This document shows, one piece after another, positions 8,207 through 18,723 of a stretch of 64,000 bases of DNA. Position 1 is the first letter of the stretch. The number at the start of each line of letters is the position of its first letter. The stretch lies in the NCBI GenBank assembly GCA_000993565.1, contig LBWK01000001.1, positions 4,695 through 68,694 of the forward strand. Direction: 5' to 3'. The position numbers and the translations under genes were made by a program. This DNA comes from a candidate division WS6 bacterium GW2011_GWF2_39_15. Its GTDB lineage: Bacteria > Patescibacteriota > Dojkabacteria > SC72. Below the pieces are notes generated by a model, which saw only the letters and a program-made list of their open reading frames with translations, was not told the DNA's origin and searched no databases.

Positions 8207-10090
8207 ATGGAAAGAACCAAAATTATTGAAACGAAAGAAAAAGCAGGAAAGAAAGTCTCTATTTCGGGATGGGTAACCACTGTACGTGATCACGGTCAGA
8301 TAGCATTCATAATGCTTAAAGATAGGAGTGCCTATGTTCAATGTGTTTTAAACGGAGGGTTAAAAGAGCCTGTCGGTGAGGGTTATGTCTTGGAAATAGT
8401 CGGGGAAGTCAAAGAAAGGCCTGAAAAGATGAGAAACGATAAGATTCCGACAGGAAATGTTGAGATTGAGGTAGAGAGCTATAAGGTTTTAAACATGTCA
8501 AAGGATCTCCCGATGCCTCTAAATACGGATGGGAAAAATATAAATGAAGAGGTTCGATTAAAATACAGATATTTGGATTTACGACGAGATAGGATGCAGA
8601 AAATTTTGAAACTCAGATCTGATTATATTGCTGCAGTTAGGGAGGAGCTCAAAAAGAGAGAGTTTATTGAGATTGAGACTCCCATGCTGACCAAAGCAAC
8701 AAAAGAGGGTGCCAGAGACTTTATTGTCCCTTCAAGGTTTAATCCCGGAAAGTTCTATGCATTACCTCAAAGTCCTCAGCAGTATAAGCAGTTGATGATG
8801 ACTGCTGGTATAGAAAGGTATTTTCAGTTTGCAAGGTGCATTAGAGATGAAGATTTGAGGGCAGATAGAGGGTATGAACATACACAGATCGACCTAGAAA
8901 TGAGCTTTATGAACCAGAAGGAAGTGATGCAAACGGTTGAAGACATTATAAAAGGAGCTGTCAGTGCCGTTGGCGGACGAATAAAGGAAGATCCGTTCCC
9001 TGTAATTAATTATAAAGAGGCAATGGAGAAGTACGGAGCAGATAAGTTTGATTTAAGAACTGAGGAGGAGAAGAAAAATAATGTTCTTGCATTCGCATGG
9101 GTTGTAAATTTCCCTTTTTTTAAAAAGGTTGATGCTGGTGATGAGGCCGAAAAGAGAGATGGAAAAAGCGGTTGGGTCTTCACACACAATCCGTTTAGCA
9201 GTCCAATTCCTGAGCATTTAGAATGGCATATGAAAGGGGAGAATATCGGGGAGATAGTTACAGCTCAGTATGACCTTGTTTGTAATGGTCTTGAGGCCGG
9301 AGGAGGGAGTATTAGAGCTCATAATCCTGAAGTTCTTAAACAAACATTTAGGATAATGGGATATAGCGAAGAGGAAATTCAGGAGAGTGTGGGTCATATG
9401 CTTGAAGCTTTTGAACTCGGTACTCCTCCACATGGTGGAATCGGGATGGGTCTAGATAGACAAATAATGCTACTTGCCGGTGAAGATTCTTTAAAAGAAA
9501 CTATTGCCTTTCCGATGACTGCTACGGGGAAAACAGCTGTGATGGATGCACCAAGTCCAATTGGTAAAAAAGATTTAGAAACACTGCATTTGGATGTTAC
9601 AGATAAGGGAGGCAGTATGGTAGACAGAATTAAAGAGACTCTAGACAGTTTAGGTATGGTCTATAAGTACATGGAGCATGAAGAGGTTCGAACTTCCGAG
9701 GAAGCGGCAAAGATCAGAGGGGTAGACTTATCAACTGGTGCTAAGGCTATGGTTATTAAATCTAAGGAATATGAGGGTAAGTACATCATGGTTGTTATTC
9801 CTGCTGACAGGCAGCTTGATCTTGAAAAAGTGAAAAACCAGCTTGAGGAGGAGTTTGAAATTGCCCCTGCCAAGGAAGTGGAGCAATATACCGGATTAAA
9901 GCTCGGTTCTATTCCACCATTTGCCAGGCTACTTAAGATGGATTTGTACTTTGATAAGGCGATGTATGACAAAGAGACCGTTGCGTTTAACTGTGGTTTA
10001 AGAACCGCATCAATAATCATGAAGGGATCAGACCTTATAAAAGCTGCAAATCCGGACAAAAAGTCAGAGAAATTAGAATTTGCACAATAG
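8207..10090 (+). CDS. aspS: Aspartyl-tRNA synthetase (short form without the GAD insertion) fused to a C-terminal YbaK/ProX-like aminoacyl-tRNA deacylase domain
   Basis: Class IIb motifs: ALPQSPQQYKQLMM, FRCIRDEDLRADR, GGGSIRAHNPEV, GTPPHGGIGMGLDRQIML. The C-terminal ~150 aa (HEEVRTSEEAAKIRG...KAMVIK...GSIPPFA...VAFNCG) match the YbaK/ProX fold pattern. Confidence 0.8.
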   Translation: MERTKIIETKEKAGKKVSISGWVTTVRDHGQIAFIMLKDRSAYVQCVLNGGLKEPVGEGYVLEIVGEVKERPEKMRNDKIPTGNVEIEVESYKVLNMSKDLPMPLNTDGKNINEEVRLKYRYLDLRRDRMQKILKLRSDYIAAVREELKKREFIEIETPMLTKATKEGARDFIVPSRFNPGKFYALPQSPQQYKQLMMTAGIERYFQFARCIRDEDLRADRGYEHTQIDLEMSFMNQKEVMQTVEDIIKGAVSAVGGRIKEDPFPVINYKEAMEKYGADKFDLRTEEEKKNNVLAFAWVVNFPFFKKVDAGDEAEKRDGKSGWVFTHNPFSSPIPEHLEWHMKGENIGEIVTAQYDLVCNGLEAGGGSIRAHNPEVLKQTFRIMGYSEEEIQESVGHMLEAFELGTPPHGGIGMGLDRQIMLLAGEDSLKETIAFPMTATGKTAVMDAPSPIGKKDLETLHLDVTDKGGSMVDRIKETLDSLGMVYKYMEHEEVRTSEEAAKIRGVDLSTGAKAMVIKSKEYEGKYIMVVIPADRQLDLEKVKNQLEEEFEIAPAKEVEQYTGLKLGSIPPFARLLKMDLYFDKAMYDKETVAFNCGLRTASIIMKGSDLIKAANPDKKSEKLEFAQ

Positions 10091-11425
10091 TTATTGACCC
10101 TGTAAAAGAGTACCCGTGTCTACATCTTTTTCTGTAGGTTCTGTAAGGATGATTTTGTCGCCGACATTATTGTAGTCTACTGCGGGTACATAATAGTGGA
10201 AATTACCAACAATCCCTGAATCAAGGGTCGCTTCACCAGAGATGATGTAAACTGGTTGTAAATATTTTTGTTCCCCTGTTGATTCATAATATCCCAGTGT
10301 TACTGTGTAGATAGTAAATTTACGAACTTTTTTAGGGGTGTATGCTACTACGTCGTCTCCATTCTTTTCATTGAGATAAACAAGACTGCCTTTACCTTGC
10401 TGAACAATGTCCAGAGCTGTTGCCGGGGGGATTAAGTTATAAGTACCGCATGGTAAAGTATCAAGAGGCCAGTATGTATATCGGGCACCATAGATCGACT
10501 TGTTTCCGGTATCCGAAGACTTGTCCTGCTTATTTATTGGCCCTATGTAGACAGTAATATTCGGCTCGTTAGGATTTTGAAATGTGACTAAGGTATCAAA
10601 GTTATATATATCAATCCTACCTTTATCTGTAAGCATTGACTCCGTGGTCGACTGGAATAACTTCTTTTCAAGATCCGTTTTCATTGTCTCAGCCCCTTCA
10701 ATGTTAGATCTAATAGATATCATCGAAGCTTTTCGATAGAAATCCACTCTAATAAGTTCTGCATCAACTTTGGATCTTGCCTGGGTTAAGCTCCCGTTTG
10801 GCAGGATATTAATATAAGTTACTTGAGGAGTCTGTTTTATATAGTCATCTTGAAGCAGGCTTTTTCCCTTTAAGTAGTTAGTAGCAATGGTTACCGCTTC
10901 GTTATCTGAGGGGAGTGTAACTCCATGTTCAATTGCGGTAGGTTTAGTAAAGTCGGTTGTTAAAGTAAAGTTAAGGTTTCTAGCCTGTACTACCAGTGTC
11001 CTATATGTCAAAGAATCAAACCAGAGGTATTCTGCTGTTCCTCTACGTTGTATTGTATCCGGATTAAATCCTAGTTTCCCGGCTAAAATCTTAGCCTCAC
11101 CTTGAGAATTGAGAGACTGTCCTACATTATTAAACTTGTGAACATTAATAATCCTTGGAAGCGAGTCAACTTTTCCTGTTACAGTCTCAATTTCAAATAC
11201 TAAATCTGATCCTGCCGCCAGGCTTAACGAGGGAATATTTAGTTTATTTGTTAGAAACTCCTCTTTTTTCTCCGTACATGCATAGTTTGCCTGGAGATAC
11301 TCTGACGGAGCATTATTTTTAGGGATACTTAAGATTATTAGTGTCCCGATAATAAATATCGCAACACCAACAATTATCACCACTCCGAATTTTCTGGTCC
11401 AGTATGCAGCCTGAGTTAATGTCAT
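10091..11425 (-). CDS. Hypothetical extracytoplasmic protein with a single N-terminal TM anchor
   Basis: One N-terminal TM helix (VVIIVGVAIFIIGTLIILSI) followed by a ~400-aa soluble region with no recognisable motifs. Confidence 0.5.
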   Translation of the reverse strand: MTLTQAAYWTRKFGVVIIVGVAIFIIGTLIILSIPKNNAPSEYLQANYACTEKKEEFLTNKLNIPSLSLAAGSDLVFEIETVTGKVDSLPRIINVHKFNNVGQSLNSQGEAKILAGKLGFNPDTIQRRGTAEYLWFDSLTYRTLVVQARNLNFTLTTDFTKPTAIEHGVTLPSDNEAVTIATNYLKGKSLLQDDYIKQTPQVTYINILPNGSLTQARSKVDAELIRVDFYRKASMISIRSNIEGAETMKTDLEKKLFQSTTESMLTDKGRIDIYNFDTLVTFQNPNEPNITVYIGPINKQDKSSDTGNKSIYGARYTYWPLDTLPCGTYNLIPPATALDIVQQGKGSLVYLNEKNGDDVVAYTPKKVRKFTIYTVTLGYYESTGEQKYLQPVYIISGEATLDSGIVGNFHYYVPAVDYNNVGDKIILTEPTEKDVDTGTLLQGQ

Positions 11426-13479: not shown

Positions 13480-15828
13480 TTATTCCGCAACAGCCTGTAC
13501 GACAACATCCGCATTTTGCTGTGTTCCGCATGTTGTTGAGGTTGGGGTTGTAAGTCTGAGATCAAACGTTTTTGTCCCAGTTTGTGCGATTCCAGTTCCT
13601 AATGTCTGATATGAGGTTGTGAGTGCTGTCCAGTTTGCCCCCGCGTTAGTAGAAAATTCATGCTTATACTGATCCGTTCCTGTTGTACCCGCTAGTGTCC
13701 ATGGACAGCTGGTGTTTTGCCCTTTAATATTAGCCGTTACATTAACATTCCCAGCGTTAGTAACCGTTTGGGTATCATTTAAATCTCCTGCGGTGGTATT
13801 TTTCGAAGCATTGGCTGAGAGTAGTCCGTAGGCGACGATTCCGTCACTTACAGTTATTGATACTACAATACTTTTTACCCAAACTGCATATTGATACGCA
13901 AAAGTATTTTCGTTTGCCGCGACCTGATTTCCAACGCTGAAACCGGTTGTTAAGATAGATGTTATAGCTCCCGTCTCGGTTGGAGCGTTTCTAAACGGTT
14001 GTGCTGCATCTCCGCTTTGAGCACTTGTTCTGAGTATTGCACCCCGTGCTGTTCCGCCGGTTTCTTTCTTAACCCATATGAAGTCAGGTTGCCATGTTGA
14101 GCTTGTCACATTTTGAGAAGTACCATTCCCAGTATAATTTCCGACAGCAAATTTGTTTCCTGTTTTAAACATGAAATAGAAGAATGTTCTGCCGGCAAAG
14201 TTCACTATACTATTTGTTCCCCTTTGAAACCCATCGGAATTGATTTGCTGTATATAATCGGCACCGGCCGTTAGAGCATTAAAAAAGATCGAGGAATCCC
14301 CAGTTATATTTGAAGTCCTCCAAGCTCCTACATTCCCCCCGTTTCCCTTAACAGCAACCAGATTGGGCTGAATAGGAAGACGGTATATATCACGATTATC
14401 AGTACCATCTCCAATATATGAACCTATTAAAAAGTCGGATGAGCCCCCAGACTTATCTGGTTTCATTGCATTACCAAATGCAGTCCAATAGTAGGTGTCT
14501 CCGGAGGTATTAACTGTTGCATGAGTGCCTACAGTAAAACCGTCAGAGTTTAGTGATGTAATCGCGCCGGCAAAGTTTGAAGCACCGTTGGCAAAGTATC
14601 CGGTAGCATCGCCGATCATTAATGATGTTTTAAAGACAGCATCCTGGTCTGTGGTTTGATCGTTGTGTTTTATAATTACAAGATCAGGTTTATAGCTAAG
14701 AGATGTTACAGAGAGCGATGATCCTGTCCCGGTATATGATCCGTTGTCCATGAGGAAGGTTCCTGTCCCAGCCGTCTTTGTTGATGCTCCACCGAAGGCT
14801 GCGTAGTAATAGGTTGATGCGTTAATATTAGTCTCGTTTGAAGTCCCTATTTGAAATCCTCCTGTGGAAAGTAGCTGCTGTATGTTATTTGGTGCACTAC
14901 CTGTGTCTGTTGAGAAAAAAGATCTGTCGCCATAGTGTTCTGAGATACTATGTACAGCTTGTCTGTTTGTTGTATTTGTTTTGTTTTTCACAAATACATA
15001 GTTTGGTCTGAATGTAAGGCCGGAGTCTATAGAGGTATCTATATCTCGATTATCCGTAGCATTCCCTGTATATGTTCCCACATCCATGGCACCTGAGACT
15101 TCTTTAAAAGCTATAAACCAGAAATTTATACTGTTTTCATTAACTACATTGTTATTTCCCACAGTAAATCCTGATGCATCTAGAGTTTGAATTCTCTGCC
15201 CAGTGCTATCCTCGTTATTGAGCCCGAAGAAATTAGAAGTATTGGTGCCCATAGGGGTAGATTTCCACATCGCAAGACTTGTATTGGAAGATTTAACTAT
15301 GGCAAGATCAGGCTGAAAGCCTGTATTTACAGATTGAGACGTCCCATTCCCAGTATAACTTCCAACACAAAATGTCCCTGACGACGTACAGTCGGAACCT
15401 CCGAATGCAATCCAGAAATACATCACCGCAGAAGTATTTACATCTGCATTTGTCCCAATTGTAAATCCATCGCTGTCAATCGATTGTATTGTATCAGAAG
15501 TTATATCTACATCCTGATCTGCTAACCTTGCCGTTGTTTCCCCTGACATGGCAGAAGTCTTAAACAGTGTTCCATCTACGCCTGCATTGGAGTCATCTTT
15601 AATGAGTATGAGGTCAGGTTGAAAGCCAAGTCCTGTGATAGTTCGGTTATCCGTTCCATCGCCCAAATAGTAACCAGTTTGTATTGAAAAGGTTGCTGCC
15701 TGAACATCCTGCTCAAAGTAGGGGAGAGAGTGTGAAATAATAAAGTATAAAAAATACGTGGTACTTAAAGCCGTAGCAAAATAGGATAAGAGAGTTGCTA
15801 AACTTTTCGATAAAGGACGGTGTGTCAT
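13480..15828 (-). CDS. Large repeat-containing cell-surface protein: N-terminal TM/signal anchor, six ~100-aa internal repeats, C-terminal ~130-aa domain paralogous to the 15969..16478 product
   Basis: Repeats each carry YxGNGT(D/S)NR...GFQPDL(V/I)xIK and (S)DGFTVG...VN...Y(Y/F)WxAFG. C-terminal domain: ITVSDGIVAYG...PWTLAG...ALTTSYQTLGT...GTKTFDL...VVVQAVAE. Confidence 0.7.
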   Translation of the reverse strand: MTHRPLSKSLATLLSYFATALSTTYFLYFIISHSLPYFEQDVQAATFSIQTGYYLGDGTDNRTITGLGFQPDLILIKDDSNAGVDGTLFKTSAMSGETTARLADQDVDITSDTIQSIDSDGFTIGTNADVNTSAVMYFWIAFGGSDCTSSGTFCVGSYTGNGTSQSVNTGFQPDLAIVKSSNTSLAMWKSTPMGTNTSNFFGLNNEDSTGQRIQTLDASGFTVGNNNVVNENSINFWFIAFKEVSGAMDVGTYTGNATDNRDIDTSIDSGLTFRPNYVFVKNKTNTTNRQAVHSISEHYGDRSFFSTDTGSAPNNIQQLLSTGGFQIGTSNETNINASTYYYAAFGGASTKTAGTGTFLMDNGSYTGTGSSLSVTSLSYKPDLVIIKHNDQTTDQDAVFKTSLMIGDATGYFANGASNFAGAITSLNSDGFTVGTHATVNTSGDTYYWTAFGNAMKPDKSGGSSDFLIGSYIGDGTDNRDIYRLPIQPNLVAVKGNGGNVGAWRTSNITGDSSIFFNALTAGADYIQQINSDGFQRGTNSIVNFAGRTFFYFMFKTGNKFAVGNYTGNGTSQNVTSSTWQPDFIWVKKETGGTARGAILRTSAQSGDAAQPFRNAPTETGAITSILTTGFSVGNQVAANENTFAYQYAVWVKSIVVSITVSDGIVAYGLLSANASKNTTAGDLNDTQTVTNAGNVNVTANIKGQNTSCPWTLAGTTGTDQYKHEFSTNAGANWTALTTSYQTLGTGIAQTGTKTFDLRLTTPTSTTCGTQQNADVVVQAVAE

Positions 15829-15968: not shown

Positions 15969-16478
15969 ATGGGAATAGGTAAAGTACTCACTATTGTAGG
16001 GGTAACTTCATTTGGTTTTCTATTTGGGTTTAAAGTGTTAGCAGCAGATACTGCCACTGTGGCAGCTACTGTAACAGTGCAAAATATCTCCGTTACTGTA
16101 TCAGATGGTACGGTTGCCTATGGTACCCTTGCTGTGAATACAACAAAGTCGACCATTGCAGCGGATTTAAATGATCTCCAAACTGCAACCAATAATGGGA
16201 ATATCACTGAAGATTTTAATATCAGAGGGCAGAACAGCACAGCTTGGACACTTGGAGCCACAGCTGCTGCCGACCAGTATATACATAGGTTCTGTACTGC
16301 CACCTGTGGAACACCTCCTACCAACTACACTGCATTAACAACTTCTTATCAAACGCTGGGGACTGCTGTTGCAACCAGTGGAACGAAAACCTTTGATTTG
16401 CAGATTAATACGCCTACATCATCTTCTTCATTTGCATCACAAGCTGTTGATGTGATTGTACAAGCAGTAGCGAACTAG
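15969..16478 (+). CDS. Small secreted protein paralogous to the C-terminal domain of the 782-aa repeat protein
   Basis: Signal peptide (VLAADT). Then ISVTVSDGTVAYG...AWTLGA...ALTTSYQTLGT...SGTKTFDL...VIVQAVAN, with an identical ALTTSYQTLGT 11-mer shared with the large protein. Confidence 0.7.
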   Translation: MGIGKVLTIVGVTSFGFLFGFKVLAADTATVAATVTVQNISVTVSDGTVAYGTLAVNTTKSTIAADLNDLQTATNNGNITEDFNIRGQNSTAWTLGATAAADQYIHRFCTATCGTPPTNYTALTTSYQTLGTAVATSGTKTFDLQINTPTSSSSFASQAVDVIVQAVAN

Positions 16479-16493
16479 TTTAAAAATAGGAAT

Positions 16494-17108
16494 ATGCAAA
16501 AATACATAAAACTTCTGCTTGTAACTGTAATTCTCCTGAGCATTACAAGCCCGGTCCTTGCAAGTATTGGAGTAGGGGTAGGGACAGGAAAGATAATAGT
16601 CGATGATAAGTTGAAACCGGGTCAGATTTATAGGCTTCCCAGCATTACAGTGCTAAATACCGGGGACGAGGAGGCTGAATATGGGCTGAGTATTGCCTAT
16701 CACGAAAAGCAGCCGGAAAGAAAACCTGCTATGGTATGGTTCAGATTTGACCCTGAAAGGTTTCCACTTAAACCTGGAGAATCTAAAGTAGTATCAATCA
16801 TTCTCGATCTGCCTGTTAATACTAAGCCGGGTGATTATTTCGCATATGTAGAAGCCTCCCCCAAAAAGAAGGCAGTGCAGGGTAATGGTGCTTCTATCGG
16901 GGTAGCAGCTGCTTCAAAATTGTACTTTACAGTAGTACCCGCAAATTTCATCGCGGGTGTATATTATAAACTTCTGTCTTTATGGCAGTTGTATATGCCA
17001 TGGTCCGAGAGGGTCGCTTTTACATTAGCCGTTATTGTTTTGTTTCTGGTTTTTAGAAAGTATTTCAAAATTGAACTTAAGTCCAAAAAATCAAATGTTT
17101 CAAGATAA
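16494..17108 (+). CDS. Secreted beta-sandwich protein with a C-terminal TM anchor (DUF916/DUF11/CARDB-like architecture)
   Basis: Signal peptide, an Ig-like pattern (ITVLNTGDEEAEYGL...PGESKVVSIILDLP...PGDYFAYVEA), then a C-terminal hydrophobic helix and basic tail. Confidence 0.5.
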   Translation: MQKYIKLLLVTVILLSITSPVLASIGVGVGTGKIIVDDKLKPGQIYRLPSITVLNTGDEEAEYGLSIAYHEKQPERKPAMVWFRFDPERFPLKPGESKVVSIILDLPVNTKPGDYFAYVEASPKKKAVQGNGASIGVAAASKLYFTVVPANFIAGVYYKLLSLWQLYMPWSERVAFTLAVIVLFLVFRKYFKIELKSKKSNVSR

Positions 17109-17113
17109 AATGA

Positions 17114-17659
17114 ATGGTTTGGAACTTAGAAAAACAACTTAAAACTGTTTTTTTGGGACTCGGAGTCCTAACCATTGCACTAGCTTCTCTTCCGGTGGTA
17201 AAAACATACGCAGCCCAATCTGATTCTGTTGGTGCAACGGTTAGAATTAGTGTCTGCGGTGATGGAGTAGTTGAATATCCTGAAGAGTGTGAGATACTGC
17301 AAGATGTTGTTAAGTCATGCACGGATTTCGGGTTTAGCTCGGGGAGTGTAAGATGTGATAATAGCTGTGAGTTTGATGTATTGAACTGCTTTACAACTAC
17401 TGTGCCAAACCTGCGACCCGGAGCTGGATTTACACCTTTTTCAACCTCATCATTGCCTAGTTTTCTTATCCCTTTTGATATAAATGGAGATGATGTCATC
17501 AAAGATCAGGAGTTTCTGACACTAATAACGAAATGGGTTGCCGGTTGGAAAATATTTATATTTGACTATACTCCTAGTACAGCTACATCATGTGATCTAG
17601 ATGGGAACCGGGTATGTGATTTAGTAGACTTATCAATATTACTATACTACTCAAAATAA
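17114..17659 (+). CDS. Secreted Cys-rich protein with a C-terminal dockerin-like domain
   Basis: Signal peptide. Cys-rich segment CGDGVVEYPEECE...C...C, resembling Myxococcus-type cysteine-rich repeats. Two EF-hand-like Ca loops, DINGDDVIKDQE and DLDGNRVCDLVD, each followed by a helix (type I dockerin pattern). Confidence 0.5.
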   Translation: MVWNLEKQLKTVFLGLGVLTIALASLPVVKTYAAQSDSVGATVRISVCGDGVVEYPEECEILQDVVKSCTDFGFSSGSVRCDNSCEFDVLNCFTTTVPNLRPGAGFTPFSTSSLPSFLIPFDINGDDVIKDQEFLTLITKWVAGWKIFIFDYTPSTATSCDLDGNRVCDLVDLSILLYYSK

Positions 17660-18723
17660 TGAATGAACTGATAAAATTGAATCCATTGCTGATATTGGTT
17701 AAAGTCCTTTTGTATGTTATCTCATGCTGGGTTTTTATACACTTCTTTGCAATACTCGGAGTCTTTATTCTCGTTGCTTATCCTGTCTGGTGGATGTTTT
17801 TCCCAAAGCAGTCAATATGTTTCTCCTGTAGTACAAGAAAGGATGGAGACTACTGCCCGCTTTGCAAAGATACTGTAGATAGAAAAAATGGAGTAATGCC
17901 TAAATCTTCCCGATCCGTTGCTCTAAACTCCGTGAATGTATTGTTAGTTACTATAATTTCTCTTTCACTTGTATATTTGGAGCACACTTTGCTTGATAGA
18001 TTGGGCTTTTTTGTCGTTGAAACTGATAAAACGGTTTCGTTTGTGATCCCTTCAAAAGGCCAGTACAGGTTAGGGGAAATATTTCCTTTGAAGATAGAGA
18101 TATCTGGAGTTAAGGTTCCCGTAAATGTTGTACAGGCGGATTTAGGGTTTGATTTTGAGAAATTGGAGGTAGTGGAAGTTTCAATACAGGAGTCTTTTGC
18201 AAAGGTCTTTTTACAGAAAGAGATTAATAATGATATCGGATATGTGAGGCTGACGGGAGGTCTCCCAAATCCGGGATTGACTCAGAATAGGGGTATATTA
18301 GGGACAGTATACTTTAAAACTCGGGTAGCAGGACTTGCTCAAGTAAAGTTTCTTCCTACGTCACTTGTTCTTGCCAATGACGGACGGGGAACTAATGTAA
18401 TCAAGGAGTTTCCCGAAATCTCATATTTGGTGTTGCCTGAGAGAATATCTGTTGAGGAGGAAAAGTTACAGGAAGGGCTCATAAAGAAAGATGTTTTAGG
18501 AGCGACAGAAGAGGACGACAAGCTAGTTTTTTTTGATAATAGTTCGAGTGTTCTTGGAGCAAAGGATGAAACAGTAACAAGCGAAAGAACATTACAGGAA
18601 CACTTCAAAGATCATGGGGTCTTCGGCGTAATTTTCTACTACTTGGAGAGATTAGACCATCTTGTTTTAAAGATATATGTAGATGTTTTAGAGAAGCTAA
18701 AAATAAACATTCCGCTTCCTTAG
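17659..18723 (+). CDS. Polytopic membrane protein with a Cys4 zinc-ribbon-like motif and an extracytoplasmic cohesin-like domain
   Basis: 2-3 TM helices; CFSCS...CPLC; then a segment (VSFVIPS...VQADLGFDFEKLEVVEVS...GYVRLTGG...GILGTVYFKTRVAGLAQVKF) matching the cohesin beta-sandwich sequence pattern. Confidence 0.45.
   Translation: MNELIKLNPLLILVKVLLYVISCWVFIHFFAILGVFILVAYPVWWMFFPKQSICFSCSTRKDGDYCPLCKDTVDRKNGVMPKSSRSVALNSVNVLLVTIISLSLVYLEHTLLDRLGFFVVETDKTVSFVIPSKGQYRLGEIFPLKIEISGVKVPVNVVQADLGFDFEKLEVVEVSIQESFAKVFLQKEINNDIGYVRLTGGLPNPGLTQNRGILGTVYFKTRVAGLAQVKFLPTSLVLANDGRGTNVIKEFPEISYLVLPERISVEEEKLQEGLIKKDVLGATEEDDKLVFFDNSSSVLGAKDETVTSERTLQEHFKDHGVFGVIFYYLERLDHLVLKIYVDVLEKLKINIPLP

Follow-up and report, generated by a model that had tools for sequence, protein, structure and literature searches.

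The 64-kb stretch of DNA analysed here (hereafter the window) was taken from contig LBWK01000001.1 of the candidate division WS6 (Dojkabacteria) bacterium GW2011_GWF2_39_15, and contains a gene for a protein of 782 amino acids (aa) with a hydrophobic N-terminus, six mutually homologous ~100-aa units and a C-terminal beta-sandwich domain (Table 1). The six units, hereafter the hexad, match the catalogued family DUF7483 and are arranged as two three-unit modules (triplets), and the whole product is probably a secreted, adhesin-like binding protein of the cell surface. In orthologues the N-terminal sequence contains AxA-ATF directly before unit 1, with Ala44 nearly invariant in the orthologue consensus, and this region has a low predicted local distance difference test score (pLDDT) in the AlphaFold model. 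We infer from these features that the N-terminus is a Sec signal peptide with a putative signal peptidase I cleavage site.

Table 1. Features of the 782-aa gene and its surroundings, in nucleotide (nt) positions of the window, together with further loci of a conserved neighbouring gene pair
Feature	Position (nt)	Strand	Remark
Whole gene, 782-aa open reading frame (ORF)	13480..15828	minus	protein identical to NCBI 'hypothetical protein UT34_C0001G0020'
N-terminal hydrophobic signal sequence (aa 1-45)	15694..15828	minus	ends VQA-A
Triplet module 1, units 1-3	14761..15693	minus	aa 46-356
Unit 1	15382-15693	minus	aa 46-149
Unit 2	15097-15381	minus	aa 150-244
Unit 3	14761-15096	minus	aa 245-356
Cys147...Cys154 pair	15367..15390		unit 1/2 junction
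Triplet module 2, units 4-6	13864..14760	minus	aa 357-655
Unit 4	14443-14760	minus	aa 357-462
Unit 5	14161-14442	minus	aa 463-556
Unit 6	13864-14160	minus	aa 557-655
C-terminal beta-sandwich domain (~127 aa)	13483..13863	minus	aa 656-782; unrelated to the repeats
Gene for 169-aa secreted protein	15969..16478	plus	divergently transcribed from the 782-aa gene
Gene for 204-aa protein	16494..17108	plus	third member of the conserved gene trio
Class II tRNA synthetase gene	8207..10090	plus	tRNA-synt_2 (E=3e-108), OB anticodon domain
444-aa ORF	10091..11425	minus	between two tRNA synthetase genes; no Pfam or NCBIfam match
181-aa ORF	17114..17659	plus	Cys-rich N-terminal part; no Pfam hit
354-aa ORF	17659..18723	plus	one-base overlap with the 181-aa ORF; CxxC pairs
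Further loci of the ~170-aa and ~203-aa gene pair	L003:8323-9475; L005:10137-11291; L006; L016; L017; L035; L044; L050		

The preliminary description of this locus, which was made from the letters of the sequence, had proposed six tandem units of about 100 aa at positions 13873..15690, corresponding exactly to residues 47-652, and six such units were indeed present at residues 46-655 when the Y(T/I/L)G(N/D/T)G motif was used to set their borders. The units are 94-112 aa long and share 26-39% pairwise identity, aligned over their whole length with MAFFT. Smith-Waterman alignment of all 15 unit pairs gave scores of 72-192, compared with averages of about 30 for shuffled sequences (z = 7.2-30.1), with every pair scoring above all 300 shuffles. 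Position-specific profiles of the units, built from 78 orthologues, recognised each other in hhalign with probabilities of 99.6-99.9% (E 4e-24 to 7e-37), and a hidden Markov model (HMM) of the unit found exactly six domains in the 782-aa ORF and no further domain elsewhere in the window. The start and end motifs of the repeat that had been read from the sequence agree with the consensus of 60 unit sequences, xxxFxxGxYTGxGxxxxxITxxGFQPDLVxxK...IQxLxSxGFxVGxxxxVNxxxxxYxxxAF. Tandem Repeats Finder reported no tandem repeat in the DNA, indicating that the unit duplications are ancient. A simple duplication history, with units 1, 2 and 3 paired to units 4, 5 and 6 or with odd units set apart from even ones, did not emerge: the profile-profile scores are mixed (U1-U4, 195; U2-U6, 186; U2-U5, 179) and yield no clean history.

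The units also differ from each other in small sequence features. After the YxGxG motif, the odd units (1, 3 and 5) carry G(T)DNRxI and the even units (2, 4 and 6) carry G(T/S)S(Q/L)xV, which is one residue shorter, so that a two-unit alternation is overlaid on the three-unit module. Cys147 and Cys154 ('GSDCSxSGTFCVG') are invariant in 78/78 orthologues and were seen only where unit 1 meets unit 2, the other unit junctions being devoid of such a pair; they probably form a disulfide that locks these two units together.

Although the repeats had been regarded as being of an unrecognised type, they match the catalogued Pfam family PF24299 (DUF7483) and the phage protein family PHROG 24898. Across the whole protein PF24299 scores 119.6 bits (E=2.1e-34; gathering cut-off, 27 bits), and residues 50-345 cover profile positions 7-326 of 330, which amounts to three consecutive units. 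Isolated single units align to profile positions 6-100 or 230-328, indicating that the Pfam model spans three units. PF24060 (DUF7361, 95 positions), which is probably a related single-unit family, reached 24.5 bits over residues 51-96 only, below its gathering cut-off of 29.5. PHROG 24898, labelled 'tail fiber protein', matches in six stretches (E=1.4e-38), and PHROG 19943, labelled 'virion structural protein', matches as well. The earlier statement that the repeats are not YD, PKD, Big, cadherin or fibronectin type III (fn3) repeats was borne out by Pfam, which at E<=1 gave DUF7483 and DUF7361 only; neither is a well-characterised Pfam repeat involved, DUF7483 being a domain of unknown function (DUF) with no described role. 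NCBIfam gave no match for the 782-aa gene or its neighbours, and the name 'DUF7483' occurred in no paper of the literature collection searched.

When a phage collection was searched with tblastn, 18 records proved to contain the repeat. They belong to phages of Pelagibacter, Synechococcus, Roseobacter and Methylophilales, bear tail fiber or virion structural protein annotations and, save for one short hit, are 25-32% identical to the query. Two of the phage hits bear LamG or SPRY labels, and such a jelly-roll was rejected for the 782-aa protein, which has neither a Pfam match nor a fold hit of this kind in the PDB. Judged by sequence, the repeats belong to a catalogued but functionally unstudied family, of which the 782-aa protein is an ordinary and typical member.

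Repeat counts and predicted structures suggest that the three-unit triplet is the structural module of the family and folds as one compact all-beta body. Six units were counted in 105 of the 120 best relatives, nine in four and twelve in six, with five deviating, and contiguous runs in 244 proteins comprised 3 (47 runs), 6 (190), 9 (5) or 12 (18) units in 260/291 cases and other lengths in 31, although both samples were drawn from top-ranked relatives and are therefore biased. Several relatives carry three well-separated triplets. Phage proteins follow the multiples of three as well: the 'tail fiber' protein gp033 of Synechococcus phage S-CBS2 (357 aa) consists of 35 residues followed by three units that reach its C-terminus, and a virion protein of phage C72C1 contains 6+3 units. 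An AlphaFold2 model of the whole 782-aa protein, built on an alignment of 78 sequences, had a pLDDT of 92.8 and a predicted template modelling score (pTM) of 0.86, and the first triplet alone (aa 44-356) was modelled with a pLDDT of 96.4 and a pTM of 0.93. Per unit, the model shows about eight strands and a single helix of four residues. The notion of units as independent beads or as rungs of a beta-helix thus gives way to triplets that would form one body, in line with the span of the Pfam profile, the counts of 3, 6, 9 and 12 and the pTM of 0.93. A beta-propeller or beta-helix rung was also rejected on the grounds of about eight strands per ~100-aa unit and of the Foldseek hits in the PDB, among which neither fold occurs.

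The triplet model superposed as one rigid body on 13 independently predicted viral proteins of the BFVD with template modelling (TM) scores normalised to the query (TMq) of 0.66-0.83, a root-mean-square deviation (rmsd) of 2.7-5.0 Å and 15-24% identity, over 287-490 columns (about 305-355 in 11/13). Among them are a 'DUF7483 domain-containing protein [uncultured Caudovirales phage]' and a viral protein of 290 aa that constitutes a single triplet (TMq 0.66; target-normalised score, TMt, 0.71), and viral proteins of 110-117 aa match one unit (TMt 0.67-0.73). Among solved structures no relative was found. The sequence of the whole protein retrieved nothing from the PDB beyond the spurious 4m0m (E=0.019), the profile of 60 unit sequences retrieved only NMD3 (E ~0.4), and a Foldseek search of the PDB with the triplet model gave no hit above TM 0.32. 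The top fold hit of the full model, 9k09_U of the cyanophage A4 portal-tail complex (E=8.7e-8), was set aside as uninformative, with a TM of 0.10 and an rmsd of 28 Å.

In every unit one Lys ends strand 3 and one Asn lies in the short helix that follows strand 7, each with a conservation of at least 90% (Lys77/Asn131, Lys179/Asn230, Lys281/Asn334, Lys387/Asn440, Lys494/Asn543 and Lys587/Asn639), and the Lys is not kept in all phage units. These residues may be purely structural or may form an intramolecular isopeptide pair.

The profile of 60 unit sequences was also searched against 1.84 billion cluster representatives (50% identity; public genomes and metagenomes), of which 21,078 matched at E<=1e-3 and 12,783 at E<=1e-10. 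The hexad form was recovered from 73 species-level genome loci at 37-60% identity, mostly labelled as Patescibacteria lineages, including Saccharibacteria, Parcubacteria, Microgenomates, Dojkabacteria, Peribacteria and Paceibacterota, and some records bear other, unconfirmed labels. In some relatives the repeats are fused to Peptidase_M23, PG_binding_1, CHB_HEX_C_1, Ig_Rha78A_N, fn3, MG2 or Gly_rich_2 domains. Outside its strands the module is more variable in sequence (mean entropy, 1.71 versus 1.39 bits).

Since the triplet forms the C-terminal, distal end of marine phage tail-fibre and virion proteins, and DUF7483 is portable, more variable outside its strands, and fused to M23, peptidoglycan- or glycan-associated domains, the hexad is best read as a ligand-binding head. 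It is reasonable to suggest, with a probability of roughly 0.6, that the product of the 782-aa gene is a Sec-secreted, adhesin-like surface binding protein. The mature N-terminal 610 residues would comprise two DUF7483 modules, each a compact all-beta body of three units, and the hexad would serve as an adhesin or targeting head recognising a component of the cell envelope, presumably a glycan or the cell wall, either of a host cell or of the organism's own envelope. Through the C-terminal domain of 130 aa this head would be attached to a surface structure that is made with the products of two conserved neighbouring genes. A cultivated Saccharibacterium cannot grow epibiotically without several of its envelope proteins that carry glycan-binding domains (PMC10633639), and by analogy an envelope-binding role of the hexad is plausible; the supplements of that Tn-seq paper contain no hexad homologue recognisable by name.

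Several points weigh against a specific ligand-binding role. No ligand, binding site or experiment is known for any DUF7483 protein, the 'tail fiber' labels on the phage relatives are mostly computational, and no lectin or carbohydrate-binding-module fold occurred among the PDB fold hits. Furthermore, even between very distant lineages of Patescibacteria the hexad keeps 40-60% identity. Such conservation is unusual for a determinant of host specificity, and a conserved ligand, for instance peptidoglycan, or a structural role would account for it better.

The C-terminal domain and its neighbours raise the possibility of a more specific architecture. As had been noticed from the sequence, this domain is a paralogue of the neighbouring 169-aa ORF (57% identity, E=6e-46), whose product consists, in order, of a signal peptide, a conserved 13-aa N-terminal extension and a free copy of the domain. 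The 204-aa protein encoded next to it combines a signal peptide and a GVGVGTGKI motif with an Ig-like beta domain, and at its C-terminus it has a transmembrane helix and a basic tail. A gene trio formed by a hexad gene with this C-terminal domain and the two other genes was present in three distant genomes, between which the secreted paralogue of about 170 aa is 57-66% identical and the protein of about 203 aa, with its signal peptide, Ig-like domain and C-terminal transmembrane helix, is 48-51% identical. Co-occurrence was counted across 76 loci: the ~203-aa gene was found at 8/12 distinct loci with the C-terminal domain, always together with the free paralogue, and at 0/63 loci without it. 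The mature N-terminal extension of the free paralogues ('..SVTATVTVQN') is highly conserved and alternates small hydrophobic residues, and the fused copy lacks it. A scan for promoters and terminators gave counts not above those of shuffled sequence.

The conserved trio hints at a pilus-like assembly. Pfam gave no match for the C-terminal domain, and Foldseek returned weak hits to FimA, FimG, PapE and the rods of type 1 pili (probability 0.38-0.85, TMt 0.29-0.47), the hits to FimA, FimG and PapE having probabilities of 0.77-0.85 at a TMt of only 0.41-0.47. Among nine orthologues of the 204-aa protein, one matched PapD_N at 21.9 bits, below the cut-off of 23, and the copy in the window had no such hit; other orthologues gave sub-threshold hits to the Ig-like families ASH, HYDIN and fn3_5. 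Profile searches with the C-terminal-domain family and the ~203-aa family found nothing among PDB sequences, and a Pfam scan of the neighbouring ORFs found no usher family.

A narrower version of the surface-binding reading, to which we give a low probability, takes the 782-aa protein to be the tip adhesin of an undescribed donor-strand (chaperone-usher-like) surface fibre. The hexad would be the receptor-binding head, the polymerising 169-aa subunit would lend its N-terminal strand to the pilin-like C-terminal domain and so complete it, and the membrane-anchored Ig-like 204-aa protein would act as the chaperone or the base. The free paralogue with its conserved extension, the conservation of the trio in distant lineages (48-66% identity), the way in which the ~203-aa gene tracks the C-terminal domain, and the faint pilin, PapD_N, ASH, HYDIN and fn3_5 similarities all speak for such a fibre. 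However, every one of these fold and family similarities lies below accepted thresholds (TM <0.5, Pfam scores under the cut-offs), the Ig-like sandwich is a very common fold, the PDB profile searches were empty for both families and no usher-like gene is present among the neighbouring ORFs. Moreover, most hexad proteins bear other C-terminal domains, so that the fibre would apply to one subfamily at best. Less probable still is the view that Patescibacteria, as ultrasmall episymbionts, use the phage-type DUF7483 hexad as the head of an usher-less, chaperone-usher-like pilus recognising host cells, the anchoring and assembly of which would depend on the membrane-tethered PapD/ASH-like Ig protein.

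At a similarly low level of probability, the protein could be a structural component of the envelope, an S-layer-like coat or spacer without a specific ligand, in which the repeats merely provide a rigid beta-rich body. The very high conservation of the hexad across Patescibacteria, the rigid predicted body (pTM 0.86) and the great abundance of the family would suit such a role, but neither Pfam nor NCBIfam revealed an SLH domain or any other known S-layer anchoring or lattice domain, and phage fibre proteins have the module as their distal portion. Its occurrence as an accessory module on M23 peptidases and beside peptidoglycan- and glycan-binding domains is typical of targeting domains, and the at least four kinds of C-terminal region among the closest relatives argue for a portable functional head. 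Of the earlier proposal of a modular adhesin or S-layer-like fibre, the modular secreted surface or adhesin role stays plausible, and no evidence of an S-layer was found.

An enzymatic activity of the repeat units themselves, for instance degradation of glycans or cell walls, is improbable. The association with cell-wall enzymes that could favour it is confined to fusion proteins, in which the catalytic activity comes from the separate M23 domain; neither Pfam nor NCBIfam gave a match to a catalytic family, and the columns conserved across the units are Gly, Tyr, Pro, Lys, Ile, Phe and Asn, which are typical determinants of a fold.

The chromosomal setting bears on the phage resemblance. On one side the 782-aa gene is accompanied by genes for GluRS, AspRS and a small membrane protein, and on the other side by genes for BipA, a glycosyltransferase and UDG; a PHROG search with four neighbouring ORFs gave no match, and the GC content of the gene equals that of its surroundings. 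The housekeeping neighbours, the lack of PHROG matches among them and the matching GC content together indicate a cellular gene and not a prophage. Hence it is very improbable that a phage or prophage tail-fibre gene lies here by chance, because the matches to PHROG 24898 and 19943 and the tblastn hits in 18 phage genomes, which would favour this, are set against those flanks, the signal peptide, the phage identity of only 25-32% and the orthologues found in conserved chromosomal contexts in many Patescibacteria.

Other genes around the locus deserve a brief description. The class II tRNA synthetase listed in Table 1 carries a C-terminal aminoacyl-tRNA editing domain of the YbaK type (PF04073, E=5e-28), a fusion which is, to our knowledge, unusual for an Asp/Asn/Lys-type synthetase. 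Next to the gene trio, the 181-aa ORF ends in a C-terminal 'DLDGNRVCDLVDLSILL' motif that is dockerin-like in appearance, and the 354-aa ORF has a weak match to Cohesin (E=0.0035), below the cut-off; the two may constitute a surface pair of the cohesin-dockerin type.

Among the means by which bacteria of the candidate phyla radiation may recognise and hold other cells, those implicated so far, in cultivated Saccharibacteria, are type IV pili and a few envelope proteins that bind glycans (PMC10633639). The DUF7483 hexad is a concrete candidate for a head that binds the envelope, and its structure would be worth determining; the quantisation by triplets and the set of three conserved genes provide specific predictions that can be checked. 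The repeat had already been catalogued as DUF7483 and PHROG 24898, without an assigned function; added here are the recognition of three units as the structural module and of six as a cassette, a link between the tips of phage fibres and a widely conserved surface protein of Patescibacteria, the finding that DUF7483 has no solved relative, and the conserved three-gene set in one subfamily.

Among known systems, two-domain chaperone-usher tip adhesins of the FimH type, with their major pilin and PapD-like chaperone, would resemble the 782-aa protein in that a putative binding head precedes a C-terminal domain that may be pilin-like, with a free paralogue of this domain and an Ig-like protein encoded alongside. 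They differ from the present locus in having an usher, the similarities to them are below threshold, and the putative chaperone is here anchored in the membrane.

The triplet could be a single-chain pseudo-trimer, equivalent to a trimeric fibre tip. The APC-beta domain of PLP1 and the C-terminal domain of PCSK9 each arrange three homologous beta-rich repeats of one chain around a pseudo-threefold axis, and these domains (6d7a and 7pln; 7anq) gave the best Foldseek hits to the triplet in the PDB. Nevertheless, with a TM of 0.23-0.32, an rmsd above 10 Å and repeats of about half the size, they offer an analogy of architecture at most. The phage DUF7483 proteins (S-CBS2 gp033, C72C1 and PHROG 24898) are considerably closer, having the ~100-aa unit and the three-unit module in common with the 782-aa protein and a predicted triplet fold that superposes at TM 0.70-0.83, whereas the 782-aa protein has the module doubled to a hexad, carries a signal peptide and is encoded on a chromosome with no virion context.

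The Patescibacteria proteins with six DUF7483 units (e.g. P0006, P0037 and P0002) are 40-60% identical to the 782-aa protein over the hexad and share the pattern of its inter-unit linkers and the invariant Cys pair between units 1 and 2. In one subfamily of these cassette proteins the C-terminal domain and the neighbouring genes are shared as well. The cassette proteins differ only in the C-terminal region, of which there are at least four kinds, and in occasional N-terminal fusions to M23, Gly_rich_2 or MG2 domains.

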